A stretch of 39,595 bases of DNA from a phage, in sequence record PZ544513.1. One strand, written 5' to 3'. The notes under the pieces are model-generated. The model was given only the letters and a program-made list of their open reading frames with translations. It was not told the origin of the DNA and ran no database searches. Shown here piece after piece: positions 1-28,365 of the stretch (the first letter of the stretch is position 1; each line of letters begins with the position of its first letter). Position numbers and translations under genes: made by a program.

Positions 1-1731
1 ATGACTGCACGTATGAAGTCAGACTTCGTGTTCTTCCTGTTCGTCCTGTGGAAAGCTCTGTCGCTCCCAGTCCCGACTCGCTGTCAGATTGACATGGCGA
101 AGAAACTATCGGCTGGGGACAACAGGCGCTTCATCCTACAGGCGTTCCGTGGTATAGGGAAGTCCTTCATTACGTGTGCCTTCGTTGTCTGGAAGCTATG
201 GAACAACCCAGACTTGAAGTTCATGATTGTGTCGGCCTCAAAGGAGCGAGCCGATGCTAACTCCATCTTCATCAAGCGAATCATCGACCTCATGCCTCAG
301 CTTCAGGAACTCAAACCTAAGCAGGGACAGCGAGATGCGGTTATTAGCTTCGACGTGGGACCTGCCAAGCCAGACCACTCACCTTCGGTTAAGTCCGTTG
401 GTATCACTGGTCAGTTGACTGGTAGTCGTGCTGACATCCTGATTGCCGATGACGTGGAGGTTCCGAACAACTCAGCGACTCAGGCTGCACGAGACCGTCT
501 ATCAGAGCTTGTGAAAGAGTTCGACGCTATCCTGAAGCCGGGAGGTACGATCATCTATCTGGGTACTCCTCAGAACGAGATGACCCTGTACCGTGAGCTG
601 GAAGGTCGTGGGTACACCACTACTATCTGGCCCGCTCGTTATCCACGCGACAGGAAGGACTGGCAGTCTTACGGCGACCGTCTGGCTCCTATGCTTCAGG
701 CAGAGCTGGAAGAGGACCCTGAGTCCTTCTACTGGCGTCCGACTGATGAAGTACGCTTCGATGATACGGACCTGAAGGAACGTGAGCTGTCCTACGGTAA
801 AGCTGGCTTCGCTCTACAGTTCATGCTTAACCCGAACCTGAGTGATGCCGAGAAGTACCCTCTTAAGCTCCGTGACCTTATCGTAGCCGACTTGGACCCA
901 GCGTCCAGCCCAATGGTCTACCAATGGTTGCCGAACCCTCAGAACAAGCGTGAGGACGTTCCTAACGTTGGACTCATGGGTGACTCGTACCACACGTATC
1001 AGACTGTAGGTTCTGCCTTCAGCTCATACACCCAGAAGATTCTGGTCATTGACCCTAGTGGTCGTGGTAAGGATGAAACTGGATATGCGGTACTGTACCA
1101 GCTCAACGGCTACATCTTCGCTATGGAAGTTGGTGGTATGCGTGGTGGTTATGAAGACTCTACGCTGGAAGCCTTGGCTAAGATTGGTCGTAAGTGGAGG
1201 GTAAACGAATACGTCATTGAGGGTAACTTCGGTGATGGTATGTACCTTGAGCTATTCAAGCCTGTATCGGCCCGTATCCATCCTGCGGCTGTAACTGAAG
1301 TGAAGAGTAAGGGTCAGAAAGAACTACGCATCTGTGACGTTCTGGAGCCTATCATGGGGTCTCACAGACTTATCGTTAACGCTGCTGCTATCGTCCAAGA
1401 CTACCAGACAGCCTCTGACAAGGATGGTGTTCGTAACCCTATCTACTCTCTATTCTATCAGATGACACGTATCTCTCGTGAGCGTGGAGCCTTGGCACAC
1501 GATGACCGACTTGATGCGCTGGCTATCGGTGTACAGTTCTTCGTTGAGTCGATGGCTAAGGATGCCAACAAAGGCGAACGTGAAGTCACTGAGGAATGGC
1601 TGGAGGAACAGATGGAGAACCCACGGAAAGGCTTCGAGTCCATCCACACTGAGTTCTGGGACAATGGGGTCCGGGTAACTCACGATACGGACGACGAGCT
1701 TGGACTAGGGTCATACGTTACGTTCCACTAG
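1..1731 (+). CDS. 19: Large terminase subunit (T7 gp19-like), 5-prime truncated by the window edge; the start lies at 39563..39595
   Basis: 576-aa ORF colinear with recalled T7 gp19 ([30 protein letters not shown] Walker A-like, [26 protein letters not shown]); reading frame is open to window position 1 and continuous with the ORF starting at 39563. Confidence 0.93.
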
Positions 1732-5569: not shown

Positions 5570-8251
5570 ATGAGCGTCATCTCTATTGACAAACACGACT
5601 TCTCTGATGTGTCGAACGCCATTGAGCCGTTTAACCTGCTGGCTGACCACTACGGGCAAGACCTTGCAGTCAAACAGCTTCAGCTTGAGCATGAGGCCTA
5701 CACTGAAGGTGAGCGACGTTTCATCAAGAACCTTGAGCGTCAGACCGAGCGAGGGGAACTGGCAGACAATCAGGTCGCCAAGCCTTTGATGCAGACTCTG
5801 GTTCCTAAGATTGCGCAAGCCGTCAAGGAGTGGCACGAAGGTCCAGACGGGAAGCTGTCAACCTCACGTCCGAGCGTAGCGTTCACCATGTTAAGCACTG
5901 AAGAGAAGGCCGTCAAGGACCGCTCTCTTCGCATCTCCTGCGAGTCTGCTGCGGTTATCATACTGAAGGTCATCCTCTCCAAGCTGGTCAAGCCTGAAGG
6001 TATACCGATTACACCGATGGCCTCCGCGATAGGTCGCACACTTGAGGATGAAATCCGATTCGGTCGCATTCGTGACAAGGAGAAGGAGCACTTCAAGAAG
6101 GCGATAGCTGATAACCTGAACAAGAGAGCCGGGGCATCATACAAGAAAGCCTACATGCAAGCGGTCGAGACATCCATGCTGGAGCAAGGCCAACTAGAAG
6201 ATGCGTGGGGAACTTGGAGTCCGACCGAGGCTGTCCACGTTGGAATCAAGATGCTGGAGATTGTCATACAGTCAACACAACTGGTCGAGCTTAAGCGTTA
6301 CGGTGCTGGCAATGCAGCGGCTGACGTTGAGATGGTCCACCTGTCAGACTTCTGGGTCAAGAAGATGGCACAACGAGGATTCAGCCTTGCGGGTATCGCC
6401 CCAGTCTACCAGCCTTGCGTCGTTCCGCCTAAGCCGTGGACTGGTGTCGTAGGCGGTGGGTATTGGGCCAAAGGTCGAAGACCATTGCCACTGATTCGCT
6501 TAGGGTCTAAGTCTGCGGTAGCACGTTATGAAGACGTATACATGCCTGAAGTCTATGAAGCTGTGAATATCATCCAGAATACACCTTGGAAAGTGAACAA
6601 GAAGGTATTGGACGTGGTGAACAGGGTCGAGAAGCTGAACAACACGCCTATTAATGACATCCCTCAGATGGAACCGCTGAAGCCTGAGGACTATGCTGGT
6701 GAAACCGAGGAGGAACTCAAGGCATGGAAGAAGGCTGCTGCTGGTATCTATCGCCGCGAGAAGGCCAGACAGTCACGCAGATTATCACTGAGCTTTATCG
6801 TTAACCAAGCAAACAAGTTCTCTCAGTTCAAGGCCATCTGGTTCCCGTACAACATGGATTGGCGAGGTCGTGTCTACGCTGTCCCGATGTTCAACCCTCA
6901 GGGTAACGACATGCAGAAGGGGCTCCTGACTCTGGCAGTCGGCAAGCCTATTGGTGCTGACGGTTTCAAATGGCTGAAGGTCCACGGTGCAAACTGTGCG
7001 GGTGTCGATAAAGTCACCTTCGATGAGCGCATCAAGTGGGTGGAAGACAACCACGAAAACATCATGGCTGCTGCTAAGGCACCGATGGATAGCATTGAGT
7101 GGTGGGGCAAGTTAGACTCTCCGTTCTGCTTCCTAGCGTTCTGCTTCGAGTATGCTGGCGTAATGCACCACGGCTTGTCTTACTCCTGCTCGCTGCCGAT
7201 AGCGTTCGATGGGTCCTGCTCTGGGATTCAGCACTTCAGCGCTATGCTTCGCGACCACATCGGTGGACATGCAGTAAACCTGACGCCATCCGGTAAGGTC
7301 CAAGACATCTACCGCATCGTGTCTGACCGCATTGAGGAGGAGCTTAAAGTCCTACTGGTTAACGGTACGGACAACGAGATGGTAACTCACGAGGACAAGA
7401 AAACTGGTGAGATTACCGAGCGTCTCAAGCTGGGGACACGAGAGCTTGCCCGTCAGTGGCTGACCTACGGTATGTCACGAAAGGTCACTAAGCGTTCGGT
7501 CATGACTCTGGCCTACGGGTCGAAAGAGTACGGCTTCGCAGACCAAGTTTACGAGGACATCGTGATGCCAGCGATTGACTCAGGGTCTGGCGCTATGTTC
7601 ACTGAACCAAGCCAAGCATCTCGCTTCATGGCTAAGATGATTTGGGAAGCTGTGAGTGTGACCGTAGTTGCTGCGGTTGACGCGATGAAATGGCTTCAGG
7701 GTGCTGCCAAGCTGCTTGCTGCTGAAGTGAAGGACAAGAAGACTGGAGAAATCCTGAAGCCTTGTCTTCCGGTACACTGGGTCACACCTGATGGTTTCCC
7801 TGTCTGGCAGGAATACCGAAAGAAGGACACCACTCGTCTGAACCTGATGTTCTTAGGGTCATTCAACCTTCAGCCTACCGTCAACAAAGGCACGAAGAAA
7901 GAGCTGGACAAGCACAAGCAGGAGTCAGGCATTAGCCCGAACTTCGTCCACTCACAAGATGGTAGCCACCTCCGCAAGACTGTAGTCCACACGCACCGCA
8001 AATATGGCGTGATGTCATTCGCAGTGATTCACGATAGCTTCGGGACCATCCCGGCTGACGCTGAGTATCTGTTCCGTGGAGTCCGTGAGACGATGGTCGA
8101 GACCTACCGCGACAACGATGTGCTGCTTGACTTCTACGAGCAGTTTGAATACCAGCTTCACGAGAGCCAGAGAGACAAGTTGCCTGAGCTTCCTAAGAAA
8201 GGTAAACTGAATATCGAAGACATCTTGTCTTCAGACTTTGCATTCGCTTAA
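5570..8251 (+). CDS. 1: Single-subunit DNA-directed RNA polymerase (T7 gp1 family)
   Basis: 893 aa; colinear with T7/T3 RNAP throughout (PMFQPCVVPPKPWTG, FPYNMDWRGRVYAVPMFNPQGNDM, AFCFEYAGV.HHGLSY, DGSCSGIQHFSAMLRD, NFVHSQDGSHLRKTVV, IHDSFGTIPADA, C-terminal DFAFA). Confidence 0.98.
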   Translation: MSVISIDKHDFSDVSNAIEPFNLLADHYGQDLAVKQLQLEHEAYTEGERRFIKNLERQTERGELADNQVAKPLMQTLVPKIAQAVKEWHEGPDGKLSTSRPSVAFTMLSTEEKAVKDRSLRISCESAAVIILKVILSKLVKPEGIPITPMASAIGRTLEDEIRFGRIRDKEKEHFKKAIADNLNKRAGASYKKAYMQAVETSMLEQGQLEDAWGTWSPTEAVHVGIKMLEIVIQSTQLVELKRYGAGNAAADVEMVHLSDFWVKKMAQRGFSLAGIAPVYQPCVVPPKPWTGVVGGGYWAKGRRPLPLIRLGSKSAVARYEDVYMPEVYEAVNIIQNTPWKVNKKVLDVVNRVEKLNNTPINDIPQMEPLKPEDYAGETEEELKAWKKAAAGIYRREKARQSRRLSLSFIVNQANKFSQFKAIWFPYNMDWRGRVYAVPMFNPQGNDMQKGLLTLAVGKPIGADGFKWLKVHGANCAGVDKVTFDERIKWVEDNHENIMAAAKAPMDSIEWWGKLDSPFCFLAFCFEYAGVMHHGLSYSCSLPIAFDGSCSGIQHFSAMLRDHIGGHAVNLTPSGKVQDIYRIVSDRIEEELKVLLVNGTDNEMVTHEDKKTGEITERLKLGTRELARQWLTYGMSRKVTKRSVMTLAYGSKEYGFADQVYEDIVMPAIDSGSGAMFTEPSQASRFMAKMIWEAVSVTVVAAVDAMKWLQGAAKLLAAEVKDKKTGEILKPCLPVHWVTPDGFPVWQEYRKKDTTRLNLMFLGSFNLQPTVNKGTKKELDKHKQESGISPNFVHSQDGSHLRKTVVHTHRKYGVMSFAVIHDSFGTIPADAEYLFRGVRETMVETYRDNDVLLDFYEQFEYQLHESQRDKLPELPKKGKLNIEDILSSDFAFA

Positions 8252-16107: not shown

Positions 16108-18279
16108 ATGTTTGACCTTAAGAGTATCTGGGGTTCTGACATCGAGACCAACGGTCTCCTTGATACAGTCTCCCAGTTTCACTGTGGGGTCCTGATTAAC
16201 GCCGAGTCGAATGAGACCCTTAAGTATGGGGTAGCTCCGATGGTCGGTATCGTCGGCGGCTTCAAAGAGTATGTTCATAAAGTGGAAGAGATTGCCGCAT
16301 CACCTGATGGTATGCTGGTATTCCATAACGGTATCAACTATGACGTCCCGGCTATAGACAAGCTGAAGCGTTTGTACTTTGGGAAACGCTTTAACTTCCC
16401 GAAACATAAGATGATTGATACCTTGGTGCTGGGACGCTTGATGTATCCAAACATTAAGTTCTCAGACATGGGCGCGGTGAAAGCTGGTCGTCTGCCACCT
16501 AAGATGATGGGACGCCAGTCTCTTGAGGCTTGGGGCTATCGTCTCGGTGAGATGAAAGGTGAGTACAAACACGATTACGTTGCCAAGTGCAAGGCTGAAG
16601 GTATCGAATATAAGGCTGGGGACGAATGGTTGTTCCCGTCTCAGGAGATGCTGGACTATAACGTTCAAGACGTTGTGGTCACACTGGCGTTGTTCAAGAA
16701 GTTCCTGACTGACAAGTATTACTTCCAGTCTGAACAGTTCGCTTTCGACCAGATTTATGCGTTGCGTCTGGAACATGATGCTGCGTGGACCTGTGCGAAG
16801 ATGGAGCGTAATGGCTATCCGATGAACACCGAGATGGTCGAAGGCTTATATCGTGAACTCACTGTCAAACGAGCAGAGTTGCTGGACAAGCTGCGTTCGA
16901 CTTTCGGTAGCTGGTACGCACCAAAGGGAGGCAAGGAGTTCTTCAGGCATCCACGGACAGGTAAGGACCTTCCGAAGTATCCGAGGGTCGTGTATCCTAA
17001 GGTCGGTGGCATCTTTAAGAAGCCGAAGAACAAAGCTCAACGCTTAGGTCTTGAACCTTGTGAACGCGATACGCGAGACACGATGGAAGGAGCACCATTC
17101 ACGCCAATCACTTACGTTGAGTTTAATCCGGGAAGCGGAGACCACTTAGCGAAAGTCCTGATGGAGCGTGGCTGGGAGCCTGTTGACTTCACTGACACCG
17201 GGAAACCTGTAGTCGATGACGAGACGTTGGAACACGTTAAGTTACCAGACGCAGAGGCTCAGGCTTGCGTAGAGCTGGTCCGTGAGTATCTGGTAGTCCA
17301 GAAGCGCATCGGTCAGGCGGCTGAAGGTAAGAACGCATGGTTGAAACTTGTAGGTCCAGACGGACGTATGCACGGCTCAATAAACCCATGCGGGGCAGTA
17401 ACCGGACGTGCGACCCATAGTTCACCAAACATGGCTCAGGTCCCGGCTAACGGTGCTCCATATGGTGAGACTTGCCGTGGTGCTTTCGGTGCAGCGTGGA
17501 ACAAGAAGGACGGTAAGCCAGACCCTTGGATTCAAGTTGGTGTGGATGCCTCAGGTCTTGAGCTTCGTTGTCTTGGGAACAGAGCGGCTCCGTTTGATGG
17601 TGGTGCATATGCGAAGACTGTGGTAGAAGGTGACATCCACTGGGCCAACGCAGTAAACGCTGGGTTAGCACCTAACGTCCAACGCGATAAGTCTAACCAC
17701 GACCATGAGGCTTTCCGTAACAACGCTAAGACGTTCATCTACGCGTTCCTGTATGGTGCAGGGGCCGCTAAGATTGGACTGATAGTAGGCGGTGGTAAGA
17801 AGGAAGGTTCAGCGCTCATGAAGAAATTCATTGAGGGTACACCAGCTATCAAGGACCTCAGGGAAGCTGTAAGTAATACGTTAATCTCAGACTCTAAGTG
17901 GGTGGACGGAGAGAACATCGTTAAATGGAAACGCCGTTGGTTGCGTGGACTCGATGGTCGCCGTATACACATACGGTCTCCACACTCAGCACTGAACGCA
18001 TTACTTCAAGGTGATGGTGCGGTAGTATGTAAGCACTGGATTGTTGAGACTGAACGTATGCTCGAAGAGGCCGGGTATGTCCACGGCTGGGAAGGAGACT
18101 TTGCGTACATGGCATGGGTCCACGACGAATTGCAGATTGCAGCTCGGAACATGGAGATTGCCGAAGATATTCGCAGGATTGCTCAACTTGCTATGCGTAA
18201 GGTGGGTGAGTTCTATAACTTTAAATGTGTCCTTGATACTGAAGGTAAGCTTGGACCAACTTGGAAGGAGTGTCACTAA
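16108..18279 (+). CDS. 5: DNA polymerase (T7 gp5 homolog, family A)
   Basis: 723 aa; N-terminal 3-prime to 5-prime exonuclease motif (DIETNGL), polymerase motifs (KTFIYAFLYGAG, VHDEL), colinear with T7 gp5. Confidence 0.97.
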   Translation: MFDLKSIWGSDIETNGLLDTVSQFHCGVLINAESNETLKYGVAPMVGIVGGFKEYVHKVEEIAASPDGMLVFHNGINYDVPAIDKLKRLYFGKRFNFPKHKMIDTLVLGRLMYPNIKFSDMGAVKAGRLPPKMMGRQSLEAWGYRLGEMKGEYKHDYVAKCKAEGIEYKAGDEWLFPSQEMLDYNVQDVVVTLALFKKFLTDKYYFQSEQFAFDQIYALRLEHDAAWTCAKMERNGYPMNTEMVEGLYRELTVKRAELLDKLRSTFGSWYAPKGGKEFFRHPRTGKDLPKYPRVVYPKVGGIFKKPKNKAQRLGLEPCERDTRDTMEGAPFTPITYVEFNPGSGDHLAKVLMERGWEPVDFTDTGKPVVDDETLEHVKLPDAEAQACVELVREYLVVQKRIGQAAEGKNAWLKLVGPDGRMHGSINPCGAVTGRATHSSPNMAQVPANGAPYGETCRGAFGAAWNKKDGKPDPWIQVGVDASGLELRCLGNRAAPFDGGAYAKTVVEGDIHWANAVNAGLAPNVQRDKSNHDHEAFRNNAKTFIYAFLYGAGAAKIGLIVGGGKKEGSALMKKFIEGTPAIKDLREAVSNTLISDSKWVDGENIVKWKRRWLRGLDGRRIHIRSPHSALNALLQGDGAVVCKHWIVETERMLEEAGYVHGWEGDFAYMAWVHDELQIAARNMEIAEDIRRIAQLAMRKVGEFYNFKCVLDTEGKLGPTWKECH

Positions 18280-21015: not shown

Positions 21016-22584
21016 ATGGCTGAACGTGAAGGGTTCGCTGCTGAAGGAGCCAAAGCGGTCTATGACCGACTGAAGAACGGTAGACAGCCATATGAGACAC
21101 GCGCTCAGAACTGTGCTGCTGTCACTATCCCGTCACTGTTTCCTAAGGAGTCCGACAACTCGTCTACTGAGTACACCACTCCGTGGCAAGCTGTGGGTGC
21201 TCGCTGCTTGAACAACTTGGCTGCGAAGCTGATGTTGGCATTATTCCCTCAGTCACCGTGGATGCGACTTACAGTCTCCGAATATGAGGCAAAGACCTTG
21301 AGTCAGGACTCAGAGGCGGCTGCTCGTGTTGATGAAGGGCTGGCTATGGTCGAGCGTGTGTTGATGGCTTACATGGAGACTAACAGTTTCCGTGTCCCAT
21401 TATTCGAGGCGCTGAAGCAGCTTATCGTCTCAGGTAACTGCCTGCTCTACATCCCTCCTCCAGAACAAGGAACCTACAGCCCTATGCGAATGTACCGCTT
21501 AGTGTCCTACGTTGTTCAACGTGATGCTTTCGGTAACATCTTACAGATTGTGACTCTCGACAAGGTAGCGTTTAGTGCTCTACCGGAAGACGTGAAGTCT
21601 CAACTCAACGCAGACGACTATGAGCCTGACACCGAGCTTGAAGTGTATACGCACATCTACCGTCAGGACGACGAGTATCTGCGCTACGAGGAAGTGGAAG
21701 GCATTGAGGTGACAGGTACCGATGGTTCCTACCCGCTGACTGCATGTCCATACATCCCGGTACGAATGGTTCGACTGGATGGTGAAGACTACGGTCGTTC
21801 TTACTGCGAGGAGTATCTGGGTGACCTCAACTCGCTGGAGACGATTACAGAAGCTATCACAAAAATGGCTAAGGTAGCCTCCAAGGTGGTGGGCCTCGTT
21901 AACCCGAACGGTATCACGCAACCTAGACGTCTGAACAAGGCGGCTACAGGTGAGTTCGTGGCTGGTCGAGTTGAGGACATCAACTTCCTGCAACTGACGA
22001 AAGGTCAGGACTTTACGATTGCTAAGTCGGTGGCTGACGCTATCGAGCAACGTTTAGGCTGGGCCTTCCTTCTTAATAGTGCTGTTCAGCGTAATGCCGA
22101 GCGTGTCACTGCTGAAGAGATTCGTTATGTTGCTGGCGAACTGGAGGCGACCTTAGGTGGCGTGTACTCAGTACAGTCACAAGAGCTTCAGTTGCCTATC
22201 GTCCGTGTGCTGATGAACCAACTTCAGTCTGCTGGCATGATTCCAGACCTTCCGAAAGAAGCGGTAGAGCCTACGGTCTCCACTGGTCTGGAAGCGTTAG
22301 GTCGTGGTCAGGACTTAGAGAAGCTGACTCAGGCAGTCAACATGATGACCGGGCTACAGCCTCTACAACAGGACCCAGACATTAACTTGCCTACACTGAA
22401 GCTGCGACTGCTGAATGCCTTAGGCATTGACACCGCTGGTCTGCTACTGACTCAGGACGAGAAGTTGCAACGCATGGCTGAACAATCCGCTCAAGGAGCT
22501 GTGGTCAATGGTGCGTCTGCTGCTGGTGCTAACATGGGTGCCGCTGTGGGTCAGGGAGCTGGTGAGGACATGGCTCAAGCCTAA
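21016..22584 (+). CDS. 8: Head-to-tail connector / portal protein (T7 gp8 homolog)
   Basis: 522 aa, colinear with T7 gp8 (YETRAQNCA, PWQAVGARCLNNLAAKLMLALFP, YRLVSYVVQRDAFGN, RMVRLDGEDYGRSY, TAEEIRYVAGELE). Confidence 0.97.
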   Translation: MAEREGFAAEGAKAVYDRLKNGRQPYETRAQNCAAVTIPSLFPKESDNSSTEYTTPWQAVGARCLNNLAAKLMLALFPQSPWMRLTVSEYEAKTLSQDSEAAARVDEGLAMVERVLMAYMETNSFRVPLFEALKQLIVSGNCLLYIPPPEQGTYSPMRMYRLVSYVVQRDAFGNILQIVTLDKVAFSALPEDVKSQLNADDYEPDTELEVYTHIYRQDDEYLRYEEVEGIEVTGTDGSYPLTACPYIPVRMVRLDGEDYGRSYCEEYLGDLNSLETITEAITKMAKVASKVVGLVNPNGITQPRRLNKAATGEFVAGRVEDINFLQLTKGQDFTIAKSVADAIEQRLGWAFLLNSAVQRNAERVTAEEIRYVAGELEATLGGVYSVQSQELQLPIVRVLMNQLQSAGMIPDLPKEAVEPTVSTGLEALGRGQDLEKLTQAVNMMTGLQPLQQDPDINLPTLKLRLLNALGIDTAGLLLTQDEKLQRMAEQSAQGAVVNGASAAGANMGAAVGQGAGEDMAQA

Positions 22585-22673: not shown

Positions 22674-23558
22674 ATGTCTCAATCAGTTTATGCCGAGTTC
22701 GGCGTTAGCTCTAATGCAATCACTGGTTCCGTTGAGGACCTGAACGAACACCAGAAGTCTATGCTTGAACAGGACGTAGCTGTTCGTGATGGCGATGACG
22801 CTATTACCTTCAAGCAACTGGAAGCCGAAAACGAAGAGGCGACCGAAGAAGACGAGAACGTCGAAGAGACGGAGGGTGCTGAAGACAACGAGTCCGATGA
22901 CGAAGAGTCTGAGACCGATGGTGAGCAGCCTGAGTTCATTGAACTGGGTGATGCACCGAAAGAGCTGACCGAAAGTGTCACCGCTCTGGATGAAAACGAA
23001 GCTGCATTTGACGACATGGTGTCTTCCGCTGTAGAAGCTGGCAAGGTCACTGCTGATGAAATTACCGCTATCAAGGCTGAATACGCCAAGGACGGTAAGC
23101 TGTCTGACGCATCCTACGCTAAGTTGCAGGAAGCAGGTTACACCAAGCGTTTCGTAGATTCGTTTGTCCGTGGTCAGGAAGCTCTGGCTGAACAGTATGC
23201 TGCTGGAGTGGTTCGCTACGCTGGTGGAGCTGAACAGTTTAACCGCATTCTGTCTCACCTTGAGTCAACCGACCCGTCAACTCGTGAGGCACTGGAAGCT
23301 GCTATCGTTCGTAAGGACATTTCGACTACCAAAGCTCTGCTGAATCTGGCTGGCAAGACTCTGGGTAAAGCTGTTGGTGTTAAACCTCAGCGTACCATCA
23401 CCACTCAGGCTAAACCTGTGGTCGCACCTAAGGCTCCTCAGACCGAAGCATTCAGCTCCAAGGCTGACATGATTAAGGCTATGAGTGACCCGCGATACCT
23501 TCGTGACGCTAAGTACACGATGGAAGTACGCGCTAAGGTAGCTGCCTCAAGCCTGTAG
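22674..23558 (+). CDS. 9: Capsid assembly (scaffolding) protein (T7 gp9 homolog)
   Basis: Start MSQSVYAEFGV aligns with T7 gp9 (..VYASFGV); acidic Glu/Asp-rich middle; C-terminal IKAMSDPRY conserved; RBS AAAGGAGA; ORF-track start 22638 is an upstream in-frame ATG. Confidence 0.93.
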   Translation: MSQSVYAEFGVSSNAITGSVEDLNEHQKSMLEQDVAVRDGDDAITFKQLEAENEEATEEDENVEETEGAEDNESDDEESETDGEQPEFIELGDAPKELTESVTALDENEAAFDDMVSSAVEAGKVTADEITAIKAEYAKDGKLSDASYAKLQEAGYTKRFVDSFVRGQEALAEQYAAGVVRYAGGAEQFNRILSHLESTDPSTREALEAAIVRKDISTTKALLNLAGKTLGKAVGVKPQRTITTQAKPVVAPKAPQTEAFSSKADMIKAMSDPRYLRDAKYTMEVRAKVAASSL

Positions 23559-23559
23559 G

Positions 23560-23582
23560 ACTAAACTATCACTATAGGGAGA
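23560..23582 (+). promoter_or_regulatory. Phage RNAP promoter (phi10-like, full consensus) CTAAACTATCACTATAGGGAGACC with leader stem-loop
   Basis: Only copy matching GGGAGA at +1..+6; transcript begins GGGAGACC...GGTTTCCC hairpin, as in the T7 gene 10 leader. Confidence 0.85.
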
Positions 23583-23684
23583 CCAAGAGACAGACTCAAG
23601 GTTTCCCTATTACTTCAGTCCATACGGATTGGGCGTACAGTAAGTAATAAACTTTATCTTTCAATTGAATAGGAGAATTATCAT

Positions 23685-24734
23685 ATGGCAAACGTTCCGG
23701 GTCAGAAAGTTGGTACAGACCAAGGTAAAGGCAAATCTGGTTCCGACGCTCTGGCGTTGTTCCTGAAGGTCTTTGCTGGTGAAGTCCTGACCGCATTCAC
23801 TCGCCGCTCTGTAACTGCTGACAAGCATATTGTCCGTACCATTCAGAACGGTAAGTCTGCTCAGTTCCCGGTCATGGGACGCACCTCTGGGGTGTATCTG
23901 GCTCCGGGTGAGCGACTGTCCGATAAGCGTAAAGGTATCAAACATACCGAGAAAGTGATTACCATTGATGGTCTGCTGACTGCCGATGTGATGATTTTCG
24001 ACATTGAAGACGCGATGAACCACTATGACGTGGCTGGCGAGTACTCCAACCAGTTGGGCGAAGCTCTGGCTATCGCTGCCGATGGTGCGGTACTGGCTGA
24101 GATGGCTATTCTGTGTAACCTACCGGCTGCATCTGATGAAAACATCGCTGGTCTTGGCAAAGCGTCTGTGCTGGAAGTTGGTACTAAAGCAGGCCTGAAC
24201 ACTCCGGCTAAGCTGGGTGAAGCAATCATCGGTCAACTGACCATTGCTCGTGCGAAGCTGACATCCAACTACGTTCCTGCTGGCGACCGTTACTTCTACA
24301 CCACGCCGGACAACTACTCTGCAATCCTCGCGGCTCTGATGCCGAACGCTGCTAACTATGCTGCGCTGATTGACCCAGAGACTGGTAACATCCGTAACGT
24401 AATGGGCTTCGTGGTTGTTGAAGTTCCACACTTGACTCAGGGTGGTGCTGGGGAAACTCGTGGTGCCGATGGTATCACTATTGCGACTGGTCAGAAGCAC
24501 GCCTTCCCAGCTACTGCTACTGGTGATGTTAAAGTTGCTCTGGACAACGTTGTGGGCCTGTTCTCTCACCGTTCTGCTGTAGGTACTGTTAAGCTGCGTG
24601 ACTTGGCGCTGGAACGTGACCGTGACGTCGATGCTCAGGGCGACCTGATTGTTGGTAAGTACGCTATGGGTCACGGTGGTCTGCGTCCAGAAGCAGCAGG
24701 CGCACTGGTTTTCACAGCGGCGTCAGCGGGTTAA
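23685..24734 (+). CDS. 10A: Major capsid protein 10A (T7 gp10A homolog)
   Basis: 349 aa, colinear with T7 gp10A (LALFLKVF.GEVLTAF, KSAQFPV, EKVITIDGLLTADV, AILAALMPNAANYAALIDPE, VGTVKLRDLALER, KYAMGHGGLRPEAAGA). Confidence 0.98.
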   Translation: MANVPGQKVGTDQGKGKSGSDALALFLKVFAGEVLTAFTRRSVTADKHIVRTIQNGKSAQFPVMGRTSGVYLAPGERLSDKRKGIKHTEKVITIDGLLTADVMIFDIEDAMNHYDVAGEYSNQLGEALAIAADGAVLAEMAILCNLPAASDENIAGLGKASVLEVGTKAGLNTPAKLGEAIIGQLTIARAKLTSNYVPAGDRYFYTTPDNYSAILAALMPNAANYAALIDPETGNIRNVMGFVVVEVPHLTQGGAGETRGADGITIATGQKHAFPATATGDVKVALDNVVGLFSHRSAVGTVKLRDLALERDRDVDAQGDLIVGKYAMGHGGLRPEAAGALVFTAASAG

Positions 24735-24997
24735 CGACCTTTAAGGCCCTCTCTACAGAGGGTCCTACCTTAGAGACGTATAGTTCTACGGTGGGAACCA
24801 GCCTGAAGGTTGACTTCCCTGAGCTTTCAGATGTGACCGATTGGTCGCTGCTTGAGGTGACTACGCCTGATGGTGTTAGCTACTCCCGTAGAACCAACAG
24901 TCTCTACTTCAAGGCCACCTCTGGCGTGGAAGGTCTGGTGATTGTTGGGTATGACGGTACGCCTGTGCGTTCCTTCAACGTATCTTTCACAAACTAA
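23685..24997 (+). CDS. 10B: Minor capsid protein 10B, predicted product of a programmed -1 ribosomal frameshift at GGTTTTC (24707-24713)
   Basis: The -1 frame is open from upstream of the slip site to TAA at 24995-24997 (94 extra codons); the heptamer G GTT TTC has the same shape as the T7 gene 10 slip site. Confidence 0.6.
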
Positions 24998-25001
24998 TTG
25001 A

Positions 25002-25043
25002 AACCCCTTGGGTGCCTTCGGGTGCTTGAGGGGTTTTTTTTGC
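25002..25043 (+). terminator. T-phi-like intrinsic terminator for phage RNAP
   Basis: AACCCCTTGGGTGCCTTCGGGTGCTTGAGGGGTTTTTTTTG: G/C-rich hairpin plus U-run, closely resembling T7 T-phi (AACCCCTTGGGGCCTCTAAACGGGTCTTGAGGGGTTTTTTG) at the same position after the capsid gene. Confidence 0.9.
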
Positions 25044-25056
25044 TTAAGGAGGGACT

Positions 25057-25146
25057 ATGTTCCTTATTTACACAGGGTTAGCACTATTCGTCTTATTCTG
25101 GGCGTACCTGCTGCCCAGCTCACCGTCTAGCCCCTATGACCGCTAA
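25057..25146 (+). CDS. Hypothetical small membrane peptide (29 aa) between T-phi and gene 11
   Basis: ATG 25057 with RBS AAGGAGG (25046-25052); hydrophobic FLIYTGLALFVLFWAYLL; under the ORF-track size cutoff. Confidence 0.3.
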   Translation: MFLIYTGLALFVLFWAYLLPSSPSSPYDR

Positions 25147-25157
25147 GGAGTAAACCT

Positions 25158-25724
25158 ATGTCTCAATACATTCCACTTAATGCTAACGATGACTTAGATG
25201 CCATCAACGATATGTTAGCTGCTATTGGTGAACCAGCAGTCCTACAGCTTGACGAAGGTAACGCTGACGTCTCGAACGCTCAACGTATCCTGCATCGTGT
25301 TAATCGTCAGGTCCAAGCTAAAGGCTGGAACTTTAACATCAACGAAGCTGCTGTCCTGACGCCTGATGTCCAAGACAACAGGATTCGATTCCTGCCGTCT
25401 TACCTTCGGGTCATGACTGCTGGGGCCACCAGCTACTACAGCAACATGGGTGGATACCTATACGACCTGTCCACTCAGTCAACCACTTTCACCGACCCTA
25501 TAACGGTAGAGCTTGTTGAGATGAAACCGTTCTCGGAGATGCCTGTGGTATTCAGGGACTACATCGTTACCAAGGCCAGCCGTGAGTTCAACGCTAAGTT
25601 CTTCGGTAGCCCAGAGTCTGAACTGTACCTTCGTGAGCAGGAATCAGAACTCTATCAGCAGGTCATGGAATACGAGATGGACACTGGTCGCTACAACATG
25701 ATGTCCGACATCGGGAGGGACTAA
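25158..25724 (+). CDS. 11: Tail tubular protein A (T7 gp11 homolog)
   Basis: 188 aa; A..DL.AIND.LA.IGEP, RIL.R.NRQ.Q..GW.FNI, YIVTKASREFN..FFG.PE, YEMD.G.YNM colinear with T7 gp11. Confidence 0.95.
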   Translation: MSQYIPLNANDDLDAINDMLAAIGEPAVLQLDEGNADVSNAQRILHRVNRQVQAKGWNFNINEAAVLTPDVQDNRIRFLPSYLRVMTAGATSYYSNMGGYLYDLSTQSTTFTDPITVELVEMKPFSEMPVVFRDYIVTKASREFNAKFFGSPESELYLREQESELYQQVMEYEMDTGRYNMMSDIGRD

Positions 25725-25951
25725 TGGCTAGTCACAACCTGAAGATTCACCGCCAGCACTTTGGTCCGGTACAACTAGGTCTAAAGACAGCAGAGCTGAG
25801 ACTTAACGACCGGGACTTTAAGGTTGGCGACTGGCTTATCCTGAATGAGTGGGACAACGGGTATACTGGACAACAGGTAGCACGTAAGGTTGTCCACATT
25901 GCTGACGTTGGTGACATCGCTGAGGGATACGTCCTAATGAGTATGATTTAA
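25724..25951 (+). CDS. Small ASCH/DUF3850-like protein (75 aa) inserted between tail tubular genes A and B
   Basis: LKIHRQHFGPVQLGLKTAELRLNDRDFKVGDWLILNEW...YTGQQVARKVVHIADV...GYVLMSM resembles the recalled DUF3850 pattern; ATG overlaps the gp11 stop (TAATG); T7 has no gene here. Confidence 0.6.
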   Translation: MASHNLKIHRQHFGPVQLGLKTAELRLNDRDFKVGDWLILNEWDNGYTGQQVARKVVHIADVGDIAEGYVLMSMI

Positions 25952-25960
25952 GGAGGGCCT

Positions 25961-28318
25961 ATGCCACTAATTACTCAATCAATCAAGAACCTTAAAGGTG
26001 GCATTAGCCAGCAGCCAGACATCCTGAGGTTCTCGGACCAAGGCGAGGAACAGGTAAACTGCTGGTCATCAGAGAGTGATGGCCTACAGAAGCGTCCACC
26101 TACAGTCTTCAAGAGACGTCTTAACATCGACGTTGGGAGCAACCCTAAGTTCCACCTGATTAACCGTGACGAGCATGAGCAGTATTACATCGTGTTCAAC
26201 GGGTCAAACATTCAGGTAGTTGACTTGAGTGGTAATCAATACTCAGTTTCCGGTGCGGTAGATTACGTTAAGTCGTCCAACCCGCGAGATGACATCCGTG
26301 TCGTTACTGTTGCAGACTATACGTTCGTCGTTAACCGTAAGGTTGTCGTTAAAGGTGGAAGCGATAAGTCACACTCTGGTTATAATCGTAAAGCACGCGC
26401 TTTAATTAACCTGCGCGGTGGACAGTATGGTCGCACCCTTAAGGTCGGAATCAACGGTGGAGTTAAGGTCTCGCATAAGCTGCCAGCAGGTAATGATGCC
26501 GAGAATGACCCACCTAAGGTGGACGCTCAAGCCATTGGTGCAGCTCTGAGAGACCTTCTTGTTGCTGCCTATCCTACCTTCACGTTCGACCTTGGGTCTG
26601 GCTTCCTGCTAATCACAGCTCCTTCAGGGACCGACATTAACTCAGTGGAGACTGAGGATGGATACGCTAACCAGCTAATCAGCCCAGTCCTCGACACGGT
26701 GCAAACAATCTCTAAGTTGCCTCTTGCGGCTCCAAATGGGTACATCATTAAGATTCAAGGTGAGACCAACAGTAGCGCCGATGAATATTACGTGATGTAC
26801 GACTCCAACACTAAGACGTGGAAGGAGACAGTAGAGCCGGGAGTGGTCACTGGGTTCGATAACACCACAATGCCACATGCTCTGGTGAGACAATCTGACG
26901 GCTCCTTTGAGTTCAAGACTCTGGACTGGTCCAAGCGTGGTGCTGGTAATGATGACACAAACCCTATGCCTAGCTTCGTGGATGCCACGATTAACGATGT
27001 GTTCTTCTACAGGAACAGGCTGGGGTTCTTGTCAGGTGAGAACGTAATCATGAGCCGTTCAGCCAGCTACTTTGCGTTCTTCCCTAAGAGTGTGGCGACA
27101 CTGAGTGATGATGACCCTATTGATGTAGCTGTAAGTCACCCTAGAATCTCAATACTTAAGTATGCCGTTCCGTTTAGCGAGCAGCTACTACTTTGGTCTG
27201 ATGAGGTTCAGTTTGTGATGACAAGCTCTGGGGTCCTTACCTCGAAGTCTATCCAGCTTGATGTAGGCTCAGAGTTTGCCTTAGGTGACAATGCCAGACC
27301 GTTCGCTGTAGGACGCTCAGTCTTCTTCTCAGCTCCTCGTGGGTCATTCACCAGCATTAAGAGATACTTCGCTGTAGCTGATGTGTCTGATGTGAAGGAT
27401 GCCGATGATACAACTGGTCACGTACTGTCCTACATCCCTAACGGGGTGTTTGATATTCAAGGTACAGGGACTGAGAACTACATCTGCGTCAACTCTACAG
27501 GTGCATACAACCGTATCTACATCTACAAGTTCTTGTTTAAGGATGGCGTACAGCTTCAAGCCTCTTGGTCACACTGGGAGTTCCCTAAAGCTGATAAGAT
27601 TCTGGCATCTGCTTCCATTGGCTCTACCATGTTCATTGTTCGTCAGCACCAAGGCGGCGTGGACCTTGAGCACCTTAAGTTCATCAAGGAGGCAACTGAC
27701 TTTCCGTCAGAGCCGTATAGACTCCACGTTGACTCCAAGGTGTCTATGGTCATCCCAATTGGCTCGTTTAATGCTGACACATATAAGACTACGGTTGACA
27801 TTGGTGCTGCTTATGGTGGTAATGCCCCTTCTCCCGGTCGGTACTATCTGATTGACAGTCAGGGTGCTTATTTGGACCTTGGGGACTTGACCAGTATCTC
27901 TACTGTGATTACCCTCAACGGCGATTGGTCAGGACGTACAGTGTTCATCGGGAGGCCCTATCTGATGTCCTACAAGTTCTCACGGTTCCTGATTAAGATT
28001 GAAGATGATAGTGGCACCCAGTCTGAAGACACTGGTCGTCTACAGCTTCGTCGGGCTTGGGTCAACTACAAGGACACTGGCGCTCTGAGACTCATTGTCA
28101 GAAACGGTGAGCGAGAGTTCGTTAACACCTTTAATGGGTACACCCTTGGTCAGCAGACCATAGGGACTACTAACATTGGTGACGGGCAGTATCGCTTCGC
28201 TATGAATGGTAACGCATTGACCACGAGTCTAACCTTAGAGTCCGACTATCCTACCCCAGTGTCAATCGTTGGGTGTGGCTGGGAGGCGTCATACGCTAAG
28301 AAAGCTCGTTCCGTTTAA
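25961..28318 (+). CDS. 12: Tail tubular protein B (T7 gp12 homolog)
   Basis: 785 aa ORF at the conserved position and of the expected size, RBS AAGGAGGG. Confidence 0.92.
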   Translation: MPLITQSIKNLKGGISQQPDILRFSDQGEEQVNCWSSESDGLQKRPPTVFKRRLNIDVGSNPKFHLINRDEHEQYYIVFNGSNIQVVDLSGNQYSVSGAVDYVKSSNPRDDIRVVTVADYTFVVNRKVVVKGGSDKSHSGYNRKARALINLRGGQYGRTLKVGINGGVKVSHKLPAGNDAENDPPKVDAQAIGAALRDLLVAAYPTFTFDLGSGFLLITAPSGTDINSVETEDGYANQLISPVLDTVQTISKLPLAAPNGYIIKIQGETNSSADEYYVMYDSNTKTWKETVEPGVVTGFDNTTMPHALVRQSDGSFEFKTLDWSKRGAGNDDTNPMPSFVDATINDVFFYRNRLGFLSGENVIMSRSASYFAFFPKSVATLSDDDPIDVAVSHPRISILKYAVPFSEQLLLWSDEVQFVMTSSGVLTSKSIQLDVGSEFALGDNARPFAVGRSVFFSAPRGSFTSIKRYFAVADVSDVKDADDTTGHVLSYIPNGVFDIQGTGTENYICVNSTGAYNRIYIYKFLFKDGVQLQASWSHWEFPKADKILASASIGSTMFIVRQHQGGVDLEHLKFIKEATDFPSEPYRLHVDSKVSMVIPIGSFNADTYKTTVDIGAAYGGNAPSPGRYYLIDSQGAYLDLGDLTSISTVITLNGDWSGRTVFIGRPYLMSYKFSRFLIKIEDDSGTQSEDTGRLQLRRAWVNYKDTGALRLIVRNGEREFVNTFNGYTLGQQTIGTTNIGDGQYRFAMNGNALTTSLTLESDYPTPVSIVGCGWEASYAKKARSV

Positions 28319-28342: not shown

Positions 28343-28365
28343 CCTTAACTATCACTATAGGGACT
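28343..28365 (+). promoter_or_regulatory. Phage RNAP promoter (phi13-like) CCTTAACTATCACTATAGGGACT embedded in a 12-bp perfect inverted repeat
   Basis: Promoter family member; flanked by AAGGGCCTATAG (28326-28337) and CTATAGGCCCTT (28364-28375). Confidence 0.7.

Follow-up and report, generated by a model that had tools for sequence, protein, structure and literature searches.

ASCH proteins carrying the GKTR or the GKER variant of the family motif were both reported to act in vitro as tRNA ac4C deacetylases, the Lys and the Glu of the motif being essential in TthASCH, EOLA1 and TRIP4-ASCH, while Tyr14 and Tyr81 of TthASCH position the nucleoside (bioRxiv 10.64898/2026.02.27.708502). The standing of GKER-type ASCH proteins as ac4C hydrolases is disputed; as cited in the same preprint, an opposing study found ZmASCH, EOLA1 and TRIP4 inactive on ac4C (bioRxiv 10.64898/2026.02.27.708502). 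For DUF3850, a subfamily of the ASCH/PUA-like beta-barrel superfamily, the literature on function yielded bioinformatic mentions only, and fusions of a ParB-CTPase with DUF3850 were described as enriched in phages (PMC12704722).

The locus described here encodes a minimal DUF3850 member of 75 aa in a Kayfunavirus genome. The window, by which we mean the whole 39,595-nt stretch of DNA analysed (PZ544513.1), is a circularly permuted T7-like genome, the landmark genes of which are given in Table 1 together with the features of the gene 11/12 junction. The identity, family and accessory status of the ORF, taken together, we regard as nearly certain. The feature itself is already known, as proteins up to 100% identical have been deposited, some of them in records labelled DUF3850 or RNA-binding, and since it is already annotated in public Kayfunavirus genomes its identification is correct but ordinary and of modest interest. 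New here are the history of the 11/12 junction in three states, the synonymous recoding that makes a ribosome-binding site, the secondary loss proposed for K1F, the low synonymous diversity of the inserted block and a testable connection with the deacetylase chemistry recently reported for ASCH proteins.

A DUF3850 gene coupled to gene 11

The stop codon of gene 11 (TAA, 25722-25724) and the start codon of the ORF (ATG, 25724-25726) overlap by one base in GAC TAATG, and both the location between tail tubular genes A and B and the TAATG coupling given in the preliminary description are confirmed. The Shine-Dalgarno sequence of the ORF lies 5 nt 5' of its ATG and is written into the last codons of gene 11, while the stop codon of the ORF is followed by 9 nt with AAGGAGG (25950-25956) and then by the gene 12 ATG at 25961, the insert thus bringing a fresh Shine-Dalgarno sequence for gene 12. 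The same description had gene 12 directly after gene 11 in T7, but T7-type relatives have a short spacer there; a directly coupled 11/12 TAATG is seen only in secondary-deletion genomes such as K1F.

Genes 11, DUF3850 and 12 all lie downstream of a T-phi-like terminator that follows gene 10 as in T7, and phage-promoter-like cores stand 5' of genes 10 and 13. A search for phage promoters 5' of gene 11 gave no match, nor was a promoter found inside the insert or a terminator between 25038 and 26400. With the terminator after gene 10 and promoter-like cores before genes 10 and 13, not before 11, the ORF is placed in the late 11-12 transcription unit and, to judge from its sequence, is a genuine, translated, stand-alone gene of the late (class III) transcript. 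It is not a chance ORF, as it has a Pfam match, a pN/pS of 0.17 across relatives and the same site in about 165 phage records.

Table 1. Landmark genes of the window and features of the 11/12 junction (positions in PZ544513.1)
Feature	Position	Strand	Basis
Terminase gene	1..1731		
RNA polymerase gene	5570..8251		
DNA polymerase gene	16108..18279		
Portal gene	21016..22584		
Capsid gene	23685..24734		
T-phi-like intrinsic terminator, 3' of gene 10	25000..25037	+	
Gene 11, tail tubular protein A, 188 aa	25158..25724	+	annotation of near-identical phages
Shine-Dalgarno GGGAGG of the ORF, gene 11 codons Gly-Arg (GGG AGG)	25713..25718	+	sequence and junction comparison
DUF3850/ASCH-fold ORF, 75 aa, stop codon included	25724..25951	+	Pfam, PHROG, 3IUW match, AlphaFold2 model
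237-bp present/absent block: ORF plus 9-nt spacer with new gene 12 Shine-Dalgarno (AAGGAGG)	25724..25960	+	junction comparison
ASCH octapeptide codons G19-L-K21-T-A-E24-L-R26 (GxKxxExR, GKER type)	25778..25801	+	alignment; residue roles from bioRxiv 10.64898/2026.02.27.708502
N28-D29-R30 codons, DUF3850-specific motif, near-invariant in the family	25805..25813	+	homologue alignments
Gene 12, tail tubular protein B, 785 aa	25961..28318	+	annotation of near-identical phages
Phage-promoter-like core CACTATAGGGACT, 5' of gene 13; downstream end of the 11-DUF3850-12 transcription unit	28353..28365	+	

Three other readings of the same DNA were rejected. Two antisense ORFs (25747..25917 and 25781..25897) both fall within the conserved sense ORF and have no independent support. 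A -1 frameshift fusion of gp11 with the DUF3850 protein, by analogy with 10A/10B, fails because upstream the -1 frame stays open over just 29 codons and a slippery heptamer is absent, and the fold z-score of -2.3 for an RNA element in the insert is unremarkable.

Two observations concern the stretch upstream of gene 11. Between the T-phi-like terminator and gene 11, a 29-codon ORF (25057-25146) preceded by the Shine-Dalgarno sequence AAGGAGG encodes the strongly hydrophobic peptide MFLIYTGLALFVLFWAYLLPSSPSSPYDR; similar peptides occur at this position only in some relatives (L001, L003, L005, L013), and the ORF may be a second small accessory gene of the region. Gene 10 contains a T7-type frameshift site, GGTTTTC at 24707-24713, after which the -1 frame is open to a TAA at 24995-24997. 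Frameshifting there would yield a 10B product with an extension of about 94 aa that has no Pfam match and is variable among relatives, being present in 5 of 12 occupied-site and 8 of 8 empty-site genomes.

The residue pattern on which membership of ASCH/DUF3850 had been proposed is read in the translation of the ORF, and the membership is upheld by profile searches. Pfam DUF3850 (PF12961) matches residues 4-73 over profile positions 2-76 of 77 with 70.1 bits (E 1.9e-19, gathering 22.9) and ASCH (PF04266, PUA-like clan) with 26.2 bits (E 1.4e-5, gathering 21.2), the best PHROG match is PHROG 986, annotated as RNA-binding protein (2.8e-35), and a search of NCBIfam with the 75-aa protein gave no match. 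The sole solved relative by sequence is PDB 3IUW (E 1.2e-10 with the single sequence, 4.2e-19 with the profile). An AlphaFold2 model built from 20 homologues (pLDDT 83) predicts the same fold as 3IUW, with the PUA-like beta-barrel common to characterised ASCH proteins.

The family is very large. When 1.84 billion representatives were searched with a profile, 16,097 matches reached E<=1e-3 and 5,359 reached E<=1e-10; many matches have additional N- or C-terminal regions. The signature H4, K7, G19-x-K21-x-x-E24-x-R26-x-N28-D29-R30, G35-D36, E42, T48-G49 is present in full in the window protein, each residue being at least 90% conserved in 154 domain hits and fixed or almost fixed in 20 T7-like homologues. 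Within it, H4, K7, N28, D29, R30, G35, D36, E42 and G49 reach at least 97% in these hits from diverse representatives, whereas K21, E24 and R26 reach at least 98% and are invariant in the 20 T7-like homologues. The octapeptide belongs to the GKER type of ASCH motif, and K21 and E24 would be its Lys/Glu dyad. The predicted protein also has aromatics at positions 12/13 (H/F/Y12-F13, about 9 positions before the Lys) and a conserved Y69 near the C-terminus.

Distribution and history of the insertion

Over positions 25100-26400 the window shares 99.9% identity with Escherichia phage vB_EcoM_SHAK7854 and 94-99% with many Kayfunavirus genomes. Same-site copies are already present in other Kayfunavirus records, among them phiHAO1-1 (gp39), ST31, EFA-1 and vB_EcoP_FFK3, annotated as DUF3850 or hypothetical; the same-site genes of the genus have the same TAATG coupling and size, and many of their products are 96-100% identical to that of the window. 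A 477-bp junction probe matched about 218 GenBank phage records at no less than 80% identity, 165 of which are occupied in the sense of one match covering at least 80% of the probe, whereas in K1F, SH4 and IME278 the probe matches in two pieces and skips the ORF. In an independent IMG/VR sample the site is occupied in 14 of 24 genomes. As an optional accessory, the gene is carried by some three quarters of relatives; K1F, SH4, CR8 and about a quarter of relatives lack it.

Several of these records deserve comment in their own right. In OR594182, the UNVERIFIED record of vB_EcoM_SHAK7854, the feature table is about 2.57 kb off the register of its sequence, the DUF3850 gene being annotated at 23437-23664 and really located at 26008-26235. 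MT350292 (Enterococcus phage EFA-1, 40.7 kb) is labelled as a phage of Enterococcus faecalis. Its DUF3850 protein, encoded next to a gene annotated as tail tubular protein A, matches that of the window with 100% identity, and the host assignment of the record looks doubtful. In the ORF table of Enterobacter phage B1, a relative, two ORFs separate tail tubular proteins A and B, ORF40 of 75 aa and then the hypothetical ORF41 of 158 aa (PMC12785254), and it may be that the 11/12 junction takes further cargo or that gene 12 is split or mis-annotated there. The virion proteomics of phage B1 is uninformative as evidence, since only excised gel bands were analysed and gp11/gp12 themselves went undetected (PMC12785254).

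Comparison of the junctions separates three states. In the ancestral empty state, gene 11 ends in ATC GGT CGA GAC TAA and is followed by TAGGAGGTGAT or TAGAGGAGGTGCT and the gene 12 ATG. In the occupied state, the Gly-Arg codons read GGG AGG or GGG AGA and form the Shine-Dalgarno sequence of the ORF; the downstream spacer is still ancestral in L014 and in Citrobacter phage CR44b, and is TAAGGAGGGCCT in the window type. The third state is found in K1F and in IMG/VR contig 2974604219, which retain the derived GGGAGG/GGGAGA codons and the TAATG, the ATG of which now starts gene 12. The 237-bp block is missing exactly from ATG to ATG in these two genomes, the flanks of which share 99% identity with occupied genomes. 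Synonymous recoding of GGT CGA as GGG AGG is confined to genomes in which the ORF is, or recently was, present. The third state is most simply read as a precise ATG-to-ATG deletion, by which K1F, the genome after which Kayfunavirus is named, would have lost the gene secondarily; with flanks this similar, such a deletion indicates that the gene is dispensable for a viable phage.

The DUF3850 gene is under purifying selection that is looser than for its neighbours, with pN/pS or dN/dS of 0.10-0.17 compared to 0.03-0.04 for gene 11 and about 0.055 for gene 12. Synonymous diversity behaves differently. Among 11 window-type genomes, pS is 0.089 for DUF3850 (25724-25951), 0.20-0.32 for gene 11 (25158-25721) and 0.21-0.24 for gene 12 (25961-26860), i.e., 2.3-3.5x lower in the DUF3850 gene, and of 55 genome pairs 50 have it below gene 11 as well as gene 12. 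The low pS suggests that the block spread more recently than its backbone, through a gene-specific sweep by recombination, nucleotide-level constraint being the other possible cause.

A divergent same-site allele is gene 11.05 of CR44b (22053-22277), annotated as RNA-binding protein. Its first 11 nt, ATGGCTAGTCA, are shared with the window gene, and its product is 45% identical to the window protein, whereas the flanking gp11 is 82% identical. In contrast to the window protein, which has all of these residues, the CR44b product lacks K7 and N28-D29-R30 and carries E24D, yet its ORF is intact, and loss of the putative site is thus tolerated in one lineage at least; gene 11.05 is either decaying or changed in function. 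The GenBank record of CR44b notes matches in mass spectrometry analysis for gp7.3, 8, 9, 10A, 11, 12, 14, 15, 16, 17 and 17.01, and this divergent allele has no such flag, which, as the absence of a note, speaks only indirectly against incorporation into the virion.

Possible functions

The reading that we put first, tentatively and with rather less than even confidence, is that the protein may be a small cytoplasmic hydrolase acting on modified cytidine or RNA. It would work in the cytoplasm of the infected cell through a canonical ASCH pocket and would not be a component of the virion or of tail assembly. In this scheme, Lys21 and Glu24 of GxKxxExR, aided by Arg26, H4, K7, N28-D29-R30, D36 and E42, would bind a modified cytidine, which might then be de-acylated or otherwise processed. 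Candidate substrates are a free nucleoside, a free nucleotide or an RNA residue such as ac4C34 of host elongator tRNA-Met, in parallel with the GKER ASCH proteins reported to deacetylate ac4C. Roughly a dozen near-invariant polar residues in 75 aa are more in keeping with an active site or a pocket for a specific ligand than with a generic surface for binding RNA.

The genomic contexts of homologues bear on the non-structural part of this reading. Homologues were found by tblastn in 561 phage records, and all annotated contexts examined lie outside structural modules: in Kagunavirus within an array of more than 10 tiny ORFs, in Tunavirus among hypothetical genes and a polynucleotide kinase, in Listeria phages between DnaD and SSB, and in P2-like phages as a 151-aa protein whose gene overlaps the stop of replication gene A in the A-to-portal interval (Yersinia phage vB_YpM_50, 2283-2738). 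Their presence in early or accessory gene arrays or replication modules and, indirectly, the unflagged 11.05 of CR44b argue for a non-structural role. The preliminary description had called a non-structural-looking gene in the late operon unusual; the late 11-12 unit and the probable non-structural role both stand. Fusion partners were discarded as a functional clue, since the Pfam partners are uninformative (DUF551 in 11, a dATP/dGTP pyrophosphohydrolase in 1, a LexA DNA-binding domain in 1 and an HTH in a few of the top 103 multidomain representatives) and the PHROG partners are all of "unknown function".

Against the hydrolase reading stand the disputed activity of GKER proteins, the absence of Thr24 and Glu74 of YqfB and the loss of K7, NDR and E24 in the CR44b allele; furthermore, removal of ac4C has no obvious benefit to a lytic phage. 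In its boldest form, which we consider a long shot, the protein would be the smallest active ASCH hydrolase and a phage RNA-modification eraser, which late in infection would strip host tRNA (ac4C34 of elongator tRNA-Met) or a nucleotide pool of ac4C or a related N4-acyl/modified cytidine. If true, such an eraser would adjust decoding or disable a host response based on nucleotides, an advantage by which the recent Kayfunavirus sweep would be explained.

Rather doubtful, although the first among the rivals, is a non-catalytic reader or binder. YTH, EVE and SRA domains read m6A or 5mC, and a PUA-like pocket could likewise bind RNA, ssDNA or a modified base without chemistry, modulating RNA stability or translation or masking a nucleic-acid feature. 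However, near-invariance of the Lys/Glu/Arg octapeptide and some ten more polar residues over thousands of sequences goes beyond what a reader pocket typically needs, the 75-aa protein has no extra nucleic-acid-binding surface, and the "RNA-binding" label of the databases is a transferred prediction.

A role in counter-defence or inter-phage competition is unlikely, but it would account for the patchy, recently spreading distribution of a gene that not every member of the genus carries. In this case the pocket would sequester or degrade an immune molecule derived from a nucleotide, such as a cytidine-based signal or a chain terminator, or protect against a host system limited to some strains. 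The low pS relative to the flanks (50/55 pairs) is as expected for a recently swept accessory gene, and homologues sit in accessory-gene arrays of many unrelated phages as well as, in P2-like phages, between replication gene A and the portal gene, an interval that we take to be a hotspot for defence cargo in P2-like prophages. On the other hand, late expression fits early-acting immunity poorly, and PADLOC gave only an insignificant best match (E 0.0073, 14 bits, 34 residues) and nothing significant for the longer P2-like and fused homologues. The literature searched links neither ASCH nor DUF3850 to anti-defence. A co-occurrence screen of 148 window ORFs against the DUF3850 state in 22 related genomes (from IMG/VR pieces and K1F) found no partner gene that tracks DUF3850 independently of clade; the correlates are mostly short alternative-frame ORFs that follow clade divergence, so that phylogeny confounds the signal, and both secondary-loss genomes retain all of them.

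That the gene is a selfish or neutral passenger, for instance a remnant cassette spreading by recombination, we hold to be quite improbable. The precise indel, the patchy distribution, the young apparent age and the CR44b copy that is degenerate at motif positions would all suit such an element, but only DUF3850 and ASCH were detected in the protein, with no nuclease domain (HNH, GIY-YIG, LAGLIDADG and similar) or other mobility domain, its pN/pS points to upheld protein-level constraint, and the family is large and well conserved. A tail-assembly chaperone or minor virion protein, suggested by the position between tail tubular genes A and B, is the least credible of all, as the gene is missing from K1F, SH4, CR8 and about a quarter of relatives and 11.05 of CR44b is unflagged.

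Comparison with known systems

For experiments on this very large and uncharacterised phage family (more than 16,000 representative clusters), the locus is a convenient starting point, in the form of a bare 75-aa domain with an E. coli host. The K1F-type ATG-to-ATG deletion is a natural clean knockout, and assays for deacetylation of ac4C by ASCH proteins are available (bioRxiv 10.64898/2026.02.27.708502). In addition, the junction shows how a T7-like phage fits a new gene into a tightly coupled late operon, with recoded gene 11 codons and a replacement Shine-Dalgarno sequence for gene 12.

The structural genomics entry 3IUW ("activating signal cointegrator" NP_814290.1 of Enterococcus faecalis V583, 83 aa) is 32-41% identical to the window protein and has a Tyr in place of its H58; it comes from a bacterial genome, whereas the window gene stands in the late operon of a lytic T7-like phage. 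PHROG 986 is a 253-position profile with the DUF3850 part at 95-171, and the window protein is the bare domain. Likewise, the ParB-CTPase-DUF3850 fusions share the DUF3850 domain (PMC12704722), but the window protein has no ParB-like N-terminal module and parA is not adjacent to its gene.

The relation to E. coli YqfB, an ASCH N4-acetylcytidine amidohydrolase of 103 aa (PDB 9KYF), is weak (hhalign E 1e-3 over 38 columns). K21, T22 and R26 align with K21, T22 and R26 of YqfB, while E24 falls on T24, Glu in GKER against Thr in GKTR. The alignment stops at residue 49 and the window protein ends at 75, so that the Glu74 region of YqfB has no counterpart; lacking this region and Thr24, the window protein is not a strict YqfB-type enzyme. 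In the octapeptide it resembles the GKER-type ASCH proteins, i.e., Thermus TthASCH, human EOLA1 and the ASCH domain of TRIP4, which have GxKxxExR with the same Lys and Glu. These proteins are, however, 120-160 aa long and have extra helices, whereas the signature of NDR, H4, K7, D36 and E42 in the 75-aa window protein is specific to DUF3850.
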